Source of the DNA: Escherichia coli
Lineage (GTDB): Bacteria; Pseudomonadota; Gammaproteobacteria; Enterobacterales; Enterobacteriaceae
DNA: 678 nt
Direction: 5' to 3' (one strand)
Assembly (NCBI RefSeq): GCF_003334335.1
Contig: NZ_QOWQ01000161.1
Position numbers and translations under genes: made by a program. This document shows, in pieces, positions 1 to 678 of the stretch. How positions within the stretch are numbered: the first letter of the stretch is position 1; each line of letters opens with the position of its first letter. The notes beneath the pieces are model-generated. The model was given only the letters and a program-made list of their open reading frames with translations. It was not told where the DNA came from and made no database searches.

Positions 1-125
1 TCCGGGATATAACGGCGGTTCTCCGGCAGGAAAAACTCCCTCGCCAGTATCACACTGTGTTCCTTCAGTAACGCCTGCAGACCATACTCCAGATAGCGAT
101 TCCTGGTAGCCAGAATCACCTTCAT
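1..125 (-). CDS. Hypothetical protein, N-terminal 41 codons only (gene continues beyond window start); possibly a receiver-like/LuxR-family-type regulator N-terminus (weak)
   Basis: ATG at 125..123 with a well-spaced SD. Manual translation gives MKVILATRNRYLEYGLQALLKEHSVILAREFFLPENRRYIP with no stop through position 3. It is absent from the supplied ORF track, presumably because the visible part is short. The pattern hydrophobic-L-x-T-[RK]-[ND]-x-[YF]-L-x-x-G-L-x-x-LL resembles the beta1-alpha1 start of atypical receiver-like domains (compare GadE MIFLMTKDSFLLQGFWQL, recalled from memory). The product call is speculative. Confidence 0.4.
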   Translation of the reverse strand, partial: MKVILATRNRYLEYGLQALLKEHSVILAREFFLPENRRYIP

Positions 126-132
126 CGCAGCA

Positions 133-139
133 CCTTCCT
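133..139 (-). promoter_or_regulatory. Shine-Dalgarno sequence (AGGAAGG) for the downstream minus-strand gene
   Basis: Minus-strand sequence reads ...CATAAAAAACAGGAAGGTGCTGCGATGAAGGTG...; the purine-rich AGGAAGG lies 7 nt upstream of the ATG at 125..123. Confidence 0.5.
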
Positions 140-153
140 GTTTTTTATGCCCC

Positions 154-189
154 ATGAAAAACGGCAGACCAGAGTCCTGCGCCTGCCGT
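154..189 (-). terminator. Putative Rho-independent terminator downstream of the adhesin gene
   Basis: Exact inverted repeat acggcag (161..167) / ctgccgt (183..189) gives a 7-bp GC-rich stem. On the minus-strand transcript it is followed immediately by UUUUU (plus-strand aaaaa at 156..160). The hairpin starts 24 nt after the TAA stop (216..214). The loop is long (15 nt) but can partly pair internally (gcagac / gtcctgc). Confidence 0.45.
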
Positions 190-213
190 CATACTTCATG
201 TCACCTTCAGCAA

Positions 214-678
214 TTAAAACTCGAAGTTCACACCAACGTTCCAGGAGGCATCGCCATCACTGAATGCCACGCCTGCTTTCGCTGCGGTCTGCTCGTTGAA
301 GCGGTAACCCACACCCACTGCCAGTGCCTGCTGGTCGCTGTAACCACCAACCGCTGCCGTGGCGTTGAATTTACCCACACTGTACGGCTGGAACAGACCT
401 GTCAGGGCCGCAGACTGTGCTGCTGCTCGTTTCATTTCCTTGTGGTTTTCATTAATCTGGCGCTGCTGGCTGTCCAGACGTGCTGAATGTTGCTGCAGCG
501 TACGGGTATTGGCTGCAATCGCCTTGCTGTTTTTCTCAATGGATTGCGTGTTACGGGTGACACGGCCATCAATGGCACCAACTGCTGCATCAATACGGTC
601 AGTACGACCAGACAGGGCCACCAGACCATCGTTAACAGAAATGGTGTTCTTTGCACCTTCTGCACGGGTCAGGGTGCC
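214..678 (-). CDS. Trimeric autotransporter adhesin (YadA/Eib-like), C-terminal part: coiled-coil stalk plus YadA-type beta-barrel membrane anchor. Partial: the 5' end of the gene lies beyond the window end; stop codon TAA at 216..214.
   Basis: Manual minus-strand translation in the frame of the 214..621 ORF is open through to position 678: [154 protein letters not shown]. The last ~70 aa align closely, from memory, with the Yersinia YadA membrane anchor (...[36 protein letters not shown]..AGVAY....NASFNIEW). Present are the conserved GG pair (343..348), alternating small/hydrophobic beta-strand residues, and a C-terminal aromatic residue (Phe) typical of outer-membrane beta-barrel insertion signals. 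Upstream of the anchor is a polar, Ala/Gln/Asn/Arg-rich segment typical of a trimeric autotransporter stalk. Confidence 0.85.

Follow-up and report, generated by a model that had tools for sequence, protein, structure and literature searches.

The window, that is, the whole stretch of 678 bases of Escherichia coli DNA that was analysed, carries three features, all of them on the minus strand: the 3' end of an Eib-type adhesin gene, a terminator, and the start of a small gene homologous to ORF-156 of the published Eib prophages. A compact unit of adhesin, terminator and small gene had been proposed by a sequence-only reading of the same bases, and this arrangement is confirmed by translation, by a match to the YadA_anchor family, by a hairpin followed by a T-run, and by the homology of the small gene to ORF-156. 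The same reading had remarked that nothing within the 678 bases directly reveals a mobile element, which holds, as the window contains no tRNA, Rfam match, repeat, integrase or IS end. A 110-aa open reading frame on the plus strand (154-486) and other short ORFs were also considered; they run antisense to the adhesin gene or across the terminator, have no supporting annotation in the examined records, and are regarded as chance occurrences.

The adhesin gene occupies positions 214..678, with residues 266-419 encoded by 678..217 and a TAA stop codon at 216..214. In phage PhiR5_2, where the gene is complete, it is 1260 nt long and encodes a protein of 419 aa, the last 154 codons of which lie inside the window. 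The C-terminal part, residues 361-419 (217..393), is a YadA-like beta-barrel membrane anchor, matching Pfam PF03895 YadA_anchor over the full length of the model (positions 1-60 of 60; E 4e-16) as well as the YadA anchor structure 2lme (E 1.5e-18). It is preceded by a coiled-coil stalk, residues 266-360 (394..678), homologous to the solved stalk of EibD (2xqh_A, E 2.7e-32; 2xzr_A, E 5.8e-27) and nearly identical to it over residues 266-326. Immunoglobulin binding in EibD maps to the stalk region that corresponds to 394..678. By the homology of its anchor and stalk, the adhesin is an Eib-type trimeric autotransporter. At its N-terminus the protein begins with MSKKFTKTILSSAVAGLMFVSFSSLSA, which resembles a signal peptide and aligns with the N-terminus of EibA.

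Within the window, 152 of 154 residues (266-419) are identical to EibA of prophage P-EibA, whereas the full-length proteins share only 51% identity because their passenger halves differ. No published name for the PhiR5_2 eib allele was found. YadA of Yersinia and UspA2 of Moraxella have the YadA_anchor barrel and a coiled-coil stalk in common with the adhesin, but the NCBIfam model YadA_autotrans scores 67.8 bits against a cut-off of 750, and no YadA_head domain was detected in the PhiR5_2 allele by Pfam search. YadA, moreover, is plasmid-borne (pYV) rather than phage-borne.

Between the adhesin gene and ORF-156 lies an intergenic spacer of 88 nt (126..213), as delimited by the annotated coding sequences in PhiR5_2, AF151091 and E. 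coli SW070917. An intrinsic-terminator-like hairpin with its T-run is situated on the minus strand at 157..188, supported by pattern scan, RNA folding and a homologous annotation. The hairpin, at approximately 188..162, consists of 13 pairs with one bulge and the loop GACU, and leads into TTTTT at 161..157; for the 90-nt intergenic RNA the folding energy is -30.7 kcal/mol, with a z of -3.24 against dinucleotide shuffles. In the GenBank record of P-EibA (AF151091), a stem_loop is annotated at the homologous place, and annotated stem-loops flank eibA on both sides. A Shine-Dalgarno-like AGGAAGG, read from the sequence, lies at 133..139 on the minus strand, seven bases upstream of the ATG of ORF-156. 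Consensus scans for sigma-70-like promoters of eib or ORF-156 found none in the window, and across 19200-22400 of the PhiR5_2 locus returned five promoter-like sites versus 4.9 expected, none of them above chance.

The ORF-156 homologue enters the window with its 5' end at 1..125 on the minus strand, as given by translation and the annotated coding sequence (ATG at 125..123; 41 codons plus 2 nt). The full protein has 156 aa and is 98% identical to ORF-156A of P-EibA. It matches phrog_6585 (E 5e-99), a group with no assigned function, has no Pfam match even at E 10 and none in NCBIfam, and ORF-60, which follows it, likewise returned nothing in Pfam or NCBIfam searches. All 44 clusters of homologous ORF-156 proteins are unnamed or called 'hypothetical protein', and all those with a species label are from E. 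coli; no paper on ORF-156 was found in literature searches.

Structure prediction says more. An AlphaFold2 model built on 22 homologues reaches a pLDDT of 91 and a pTM of 0.86, and among its best 40 Foldseek matches in the PDB almost all are NarL/FixJ-type regulators, including RcsB, StyR, FixJ, EvgA, DesR, VpsT, VraR, LiaR and DosR, with modest scores (E from 7e-4, TM 0.29-0.47). The predicted fold thus resembles a truncated receiver-like domain joined to a LuxR-type HTH, in the manner of NarL/FixJ proteins. The receiver-like part spans only some 95 aa and has four strands, with no fifth predicted. A LuxR/GerE HTH is not recognisable by sequence; when PDB sequences were searched with a profile, every match stayed below threshold, and all were to LuxR-type HTH proteins (VqmA/LuxR, E 0.056; GerE, E 0.33). 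A phospho-acceptor pocket requires an acidic pair after beta1, an Asp after beta3, a Thr or Ser after beta4, and a Lys after beta5. In ORF-156 the acidic pair is replaced by T7, R8 and N9, which are invariant or nearly so among homologues, and of the pocket residues only D52, after the third strand (46-51), is invariant. The model therefore points to a regulator-like protein with an atypical receiver, probably non-phosphorylated, rather than to a canonical member of the NarL/FixJ family. The 'regulator-like' label that the sequence-only reading had given to the small gene draws its support from structure prediction only, and from no sequence family.

Linkage of ORF-156 to eib is kept in four draft genomes in which the ORF-156 protein is only 67% identical, and in the STEC2018-607 locus, which has 76.5% DNA identity to the window. 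A strict linkage of the two genes was considered and rejected as incomplete, since a 55%-identical homologue of ORF-156 stands without eib.

The complete genome of phage PhiR5_2 (PV340546.1, 61.5 kb) is 100% identical to the window over all 678 bases, and it is one of 12 phage records that contain the window. It carries the genes of a lambdoid temperate phage, including integrase, exo/bet/gam, kil, N, cI, cro, cII, O, a DnaC-like gene, NinB and RusA, together with the late genes for holin, lysozyme, Rz, terminase, portal, capsid and tail fibres. The right end of the same genome encodes IbrA and IbrB. Its GenBank record describes a complete genome with K-12 MG1655 as host, and it is on this record that the formation of infectious particles rests. 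No paper describing PhiR5_2 was found in literature searches; phage names such as PhiR40.1, PhiR47.1 and similar ones (PMC13190303) suggest that it comes from the ECOR temperate-phage panel of Brenes and Laub.

On chromosomes, the unit is likewise found in prophages. The lambda-like prophage of E. coli SW070917 is also 100% identical to the window, and the prophages P-EibA, P-EibC and P-EibD of ECOR-9 (AF151091, AF151674 and AF151675) share 95.7-96.0% DNA identity with it. In SW070917, the siphovirus prophage runs in the order portal, capsid, tape measure, J, tail fibre, tfa, eib, ORF-156, an eaaA-like SPATE gene and DinI, and adjoins a truncated ybdK. In JNEC-KY177, a 933W-like prophage with an N4-gp56-type capsid adjoins yfdC, and a UPEC strain carries an eib prophage of the same kind. 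The eib prophage of 2012EL-2448, with HK97-type head genes, adjoins btsS, as do the prophages of the four draft genomes with the 67%-identical ORF-156, whose right end from J to DinI is like that of 2012EL-2448. NCTC9112 and STEC2018-607 have lambda-like eib prophages beside a truncated ompW. All seven sampled chromosomal contexts are therefore prophages, representing three kinds of backbone and at least four integration sites (ybdK, yfdC, btsS and ompW). In every sampled context the gene order is tail fibre, DUF4376 tail-fibre assembly gene (tfa), eib and ORF-156, and in the chromosomal ones ORF-156 is followed by SPATE or DinI and then by the end of the prophage. The flanks thus hold what the sequence-only reading had looked to them for, with integrase, lysis and tail-fibre genes in PhiR5_2 and prophage flanks in SW070917. 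Its suggestion of tRNA-adjacent insertion fared worse, for ARAGORN found no tRNA within 20 kb at the examined ends of five loci.

Taken together, we consider, with a probability of roughly 0.94, that the window belongs to a cassette for lysogenic conversion (a 'moron') found in temperate lambdoid phages of E. coli. The prophage-cargo interpretation of the sequence-only reading is hence borne out by the identity to PhiR5_2, by the seven prophage contexts out of seven, and by the presence of the window in 42 of 5426 genomes.

The surroundings of the cassette are mosaic. The 933W-like genome of PhiR5_2 and the lambda-like prophage of SW070917 have DNA in common only at 19473-20700 and 21441-23887 of the PhiR5_2 locus (L001). 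The shared parts comprise ORF-60, ORF-156 and the 3' half of eib, and then the 5' end of eib, the upstream spacer, tfa and the C-terminus of the tail fibre, whereas the middle of eib is unrelated. The joints of the mosaic lie within phage genes, at the C-terminus of the tail fibre, and within eib. Among phage records, 187 have the gene that follows the cassette in PhiR5_2, most of them from Stx-converting phages, and 12 contain the window. Along the Stx2a phage F422 (Traversvirus tv933W), collinearity with PhiR5_2 extends to position 19517 of the same locus and resumes at 23466; between these points F422 has about 1.2 kb in place of the approximately 3.9 kb (about 19518-23465) that hold tfa, eib, ORF-156 and ORF-60. 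As the cassette is missing from this nearest Stx2 phage backbone, it is dispensable for the phage.

Base composition adds to this picture. The phage locus has 51% GC, whereas the passenger half of eib has 38% with a GC3 of 27%, and the upstream spacer 40%, which favours the view that part of the cassette is of foreign origin. The part of eib in the window has 54.6% GC and does not deviate. Within the window, GC ranges from 49 to 60% and is about 53% overall, near the E. coli average; the shift begins approximately 20 bases beyond the right window edge, in the half that encodes the passenger. A GC shift, which the sequence-only reading had named among the features to be sought, is therefore present in the passenger half and not in the window itself.

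Of the other explanations, the one that survives best, very improbable as we judge it, is that a non-phage genomic island holds the cassette, or that IS elements move it, the association with prophages being secondary. It draws on an ISEc12 element of the IS21 family, inserted between tfa and eib in NCTC9112, and on the 55%-identical ORF-156 homologue, which resides without any eib remnant in an island that does not look like a prophage, beside hpaBC, a PerC gene and a Y1 transposase. In the other six contexts, however, no IS flanks the cassette, neither an adjacent tRNA nor an adjacent island-type integrase was found at the examined ends, and the joints in the tail-fibre C-terminus and in eib are those expected of homologous recombination between phages.

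Less probable again is a role in the virion, in which the Eib-like protein would be built into the particle as a tail fibre or adhesin instead of serving lysogenic conversion. The position of eib directly after the tail-fibre and tail-fibre assembly genes would fit such a role, as would weak matches to PHROGs labelled 'tail' (phrog_17426 'adhesin', E 5e-12; phrog_26246, E 1e-9). The best PHROG matches, however, are phrog_9547 (E 5e-184) and phrog_10464, neither of which has an assigned function, and a signal-peptide-like N-terminus combined with a complete YadA-type barrel is how cell-surface autotransporters of type Vc are built. In addition, close relatives of the 933W type make tails although they have no eib, and in published work the Eib proteins reside in the outer membrane of the lysogen (PMC4352079; PMC3153244).

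The window is rare among strains. By megablast it is present in 42 of 5426 complete E. coli genomes (0.8%), in 112 places that are all chromosomal; carrier genomes have three such places in the median and six at most. The more sensitive blastn found any match in 280 genomes (5.2%) and most of the query in 67 (1.2%), and no plasmid in PLSDB matches the window. The control core gene btsS, which lies beside one of the eib prophages, is present in all 5426 genomes, so that the strain comparison proposed by the sequence-only reading comes out as expected of cargo. That reading had set against itself the pattern of conserved core flanks with syntenic orthologues in all related genomes; what was found are prophages at ybdK, yfdC, btsS and ompW. 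Several copies per carrier genome recall the four eib genes of ECOR-9 (PMC4352079, Table 2). The weakest explanation is vertical inheritance, with the adhesin gene belonging to the chromosomal core or to a lineage and having phage neighbours by coincidence. It accords with the near-average GC of the window and with 112 of 112 megablast places being chromosomal and none on a plasmid. It is refuted by the presence and absence counts (0.8% of complete genomes by megablast, 1.2% with the whole unit and 5.2% with any match by blastn, versus 100% for btsS) and by the number of sites on the chromosome, at least four, each of them in the late region of a prophage; the identity of the window to a free phage genome further speaks against it, leaving it scarcely credible.

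A lysogenic-conversion cassette of lambdoid phages would work as follows. The cassette, in the order eib, terminator, ORF-156 and ORF-60, lies in the late region, directly downstream of the side tail-fibre and tail-fibre assembly genes. It would spread by lysogenisation of new hosts by cassette-bearing phages, and also by homologous recombination between co-resident lambdoid prophages through conserved flanks, formed on one side by the tail-fibre C-terminus and tfa, and on the other by the 3' half of eib with ORF-156 and ORF-60. Such recombination would shuffle the variable, low-GC passenger region, and spread by lysogeny and by recombination at conserved flanks would explain why one conserved eib 3' half is found with different passengers. 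In the lysogen, Eib would be exported by its signal peptide, trimerise, insert its YadA-type barrel into the outer membrane and display the coiled-coil stalk. By analogy with the published EibA, C, D, E, F and G, the stalk would bind immunoglobulin Fc non-immunologically and promote adherence and serum resistance. The hairpin would end the eib transcript, and ORF-156 is probably a DNA-binding regulator.

Immunoglobulin binding by the PhiR5_2 allele is accordingly best called putative, extrapolated as it is from published Eib relatives. The Eib proteins are outer-membrane trimeric autotransporters with non-immune immunoglobulin binding (PMC4352079). The related Cla adhesins do not bind IgG (bioRxiv 10.64898/2025.12.25.695649) despite the same architecture, so that binding cannot be assumed from architecture.

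The cassette has the features of known lambdoid morons, such as lom and bor of lambda and stx of the 933W-type phages: it is an accessory and dispensable unit of the late region, has its own terminator and a part with deviating base composition, and encodes a host-surface factor. Another trait of morons, an own promoter, was not apparent from the consensus scan, where five promoter-like sites stand against 4.9 expected. Among Eib loci, P-EibA, P-EibC and P-EibD are arranged like the PhiR5_2 locus, with tail fibre, the tfa-like ORF-191, eib, stem-loop, ORF-156 and ORF-60. The record of P-EibD runs into a gene like L0124 of 933W, which is 100% identical to PhiR5_2 over the 364 overlapping bases. 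PhiR5_2 differs from the ECOR-9 prophages in that its cassette is followed by 933W-type tail genes and not by an eaaA SPATE, and its adhesin has another passenger half than EibA.

Sandt and Hill are said to have described the ECOR-9 prophages P-EibA, P-EibC and P-EibD in 2000, placing the eib genes on lambdoid prophages. A prophage-borne Eib cassette is thus already known, published in 2000, and its exact sequence stands in a deposited phage genome. A later paper citing Sandt and Hill 2000 places eaaA and eaaC on prophages that are linked to eib genes, and records the transduction of eaaC from one E. coli strain to another (PMC3153244). A review tabulates EibD as a factor borne by an ECOR-9 prophage, temperate and 'induced from bacteria' (PMC8065619). 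The title of Sandt et al. 2002, cited in PMC8065619, credits eib expression to IbrA and IbrB, which are distinct activators.

The result adds little to current knowledge of eib genes. In practice it helps annotation: the two genes, which RefSeq lists as 'YadA C-terminal domain-containing protein' and 'hypothetical protein', can be understood as an Eib-type adhesin and its conserved ORF-156 partner in a phage cargo cassette. The presence of eib and of its published activators ibrAB on one phage genome, that of PhiR5_2, may merit a small follow-up, as may the predicted regulator fold of ORF-156, whose uncharacterised family is the one thread with some novelty. It is conceivable, if rather unlikely, that ORF-156 founds an undescribed, E. 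coli-restricted and phage-borne family of transcription factors, composed of a truncated pseudo-receiver and a LuxR-type HTH, which could control eib or rewire host genes of the lysogen, for example as a non-phosphorylated partner of RcsB, by analogy with the way RcsA, GadE and MatA act.

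ORF-156, whose start occupies positions 1-125 of the window on the minus strand and which is complete in locus L001 of phage PhiR5_2 (19655-20125, minus strand), has no family in Pfam or NCBIfam, and all of its species-labelled homologues are from E. coli. Its structural model is confident (pLDDT 91) and predicts a truncated receiver-like domain joined to a LuxR-type HTH, with RcsB, FixJ, and EvgA as the top structural matches; residue D52 is invariant, and the acidic pair is absent. P0032, a homologue of 55% identity that is indexed in 391 blocks of the contig collection, lies at 8001-8495 of loci L010-L013; there it stands alone downstream of hpaB/hpaC, and both a Y1 transposase and a gene of the PerC family are close by. 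Because no eib remnant is present in the vicinity of P0032 in L010-L013, the ORF-156 family is not strictly linked to eib.

The eib gene itself is mosaic among alleles in its passenger-encoding half, which lies just to the right of the window (L001 20701-21473) and has a GC content of 38% and a GC3 of 27%. The recombination joint between the passenger and the conserved 3' half falls ~22 bases past window position 678, and the eib alleles of PhiR5_2 and the lambda-like prophage of SW070917 have only residues 254-419 in common, despite a window that is 100% identical in both.

In the lambda-like prophages, ORF-156 is followed by an eaaA-like SPATE (S6 family peptidase, ~1330 aa; L004 15374-19381, L008 4270-8262, and L009 4374-8381), the same order as in P-EibA, the published ECOR-9 prophage, whereas 933W-type tail genes take this place in PhiR5_2 and DinI takes it in the btsS-site prophages. 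In E. coli NCTC9112, an insertion of the IS21-family element ISEc12 (istA/istB, L009 10859-13161) separates eib from the tail-fibre assembly gene. The eib-carrying prophage of strain 2012EL-2448 has a further outer-membrane cargo gene (L006 30652-31815): it is full-length, its annotation is porin OmpC, and it sits amid the tail genes, with minor tail protein L on one side and a phage tail protein on the other. Toxin-antitoxin cargo is also present on Eib phages: PhiR5_2 has higBA in its early region (L003 15605-16133), and the JNEC-KY177 prophage has a hok/gef gene close to lom in its late region (L005 14292-14432). The Stx2a phage F422, a cassette-less relative of PhiR5_2, retains at the site of the missing cassette 106 bp with 89.6% identity to the ORF-156 3' end (L018 8858-8963 versus L001 19666-19771); this segment could have been left behind when the cassette was lost, or could be an anchor for recombination.

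Expression of eib is reportedly activated by ibrA and ibrB, which in ECOR-9 are said to reside on a separate 'IbrAB island'. In PhiR5_2, by contrast, both genes are found at the right end of the same phage that carries eib (L001 84-1897, plus strand), ibrA with weak PAPS-reductase-like matches and ibrB with one weak Noc/ParB-like match. Therefore, a single phage genome holds eib together with its published activators.
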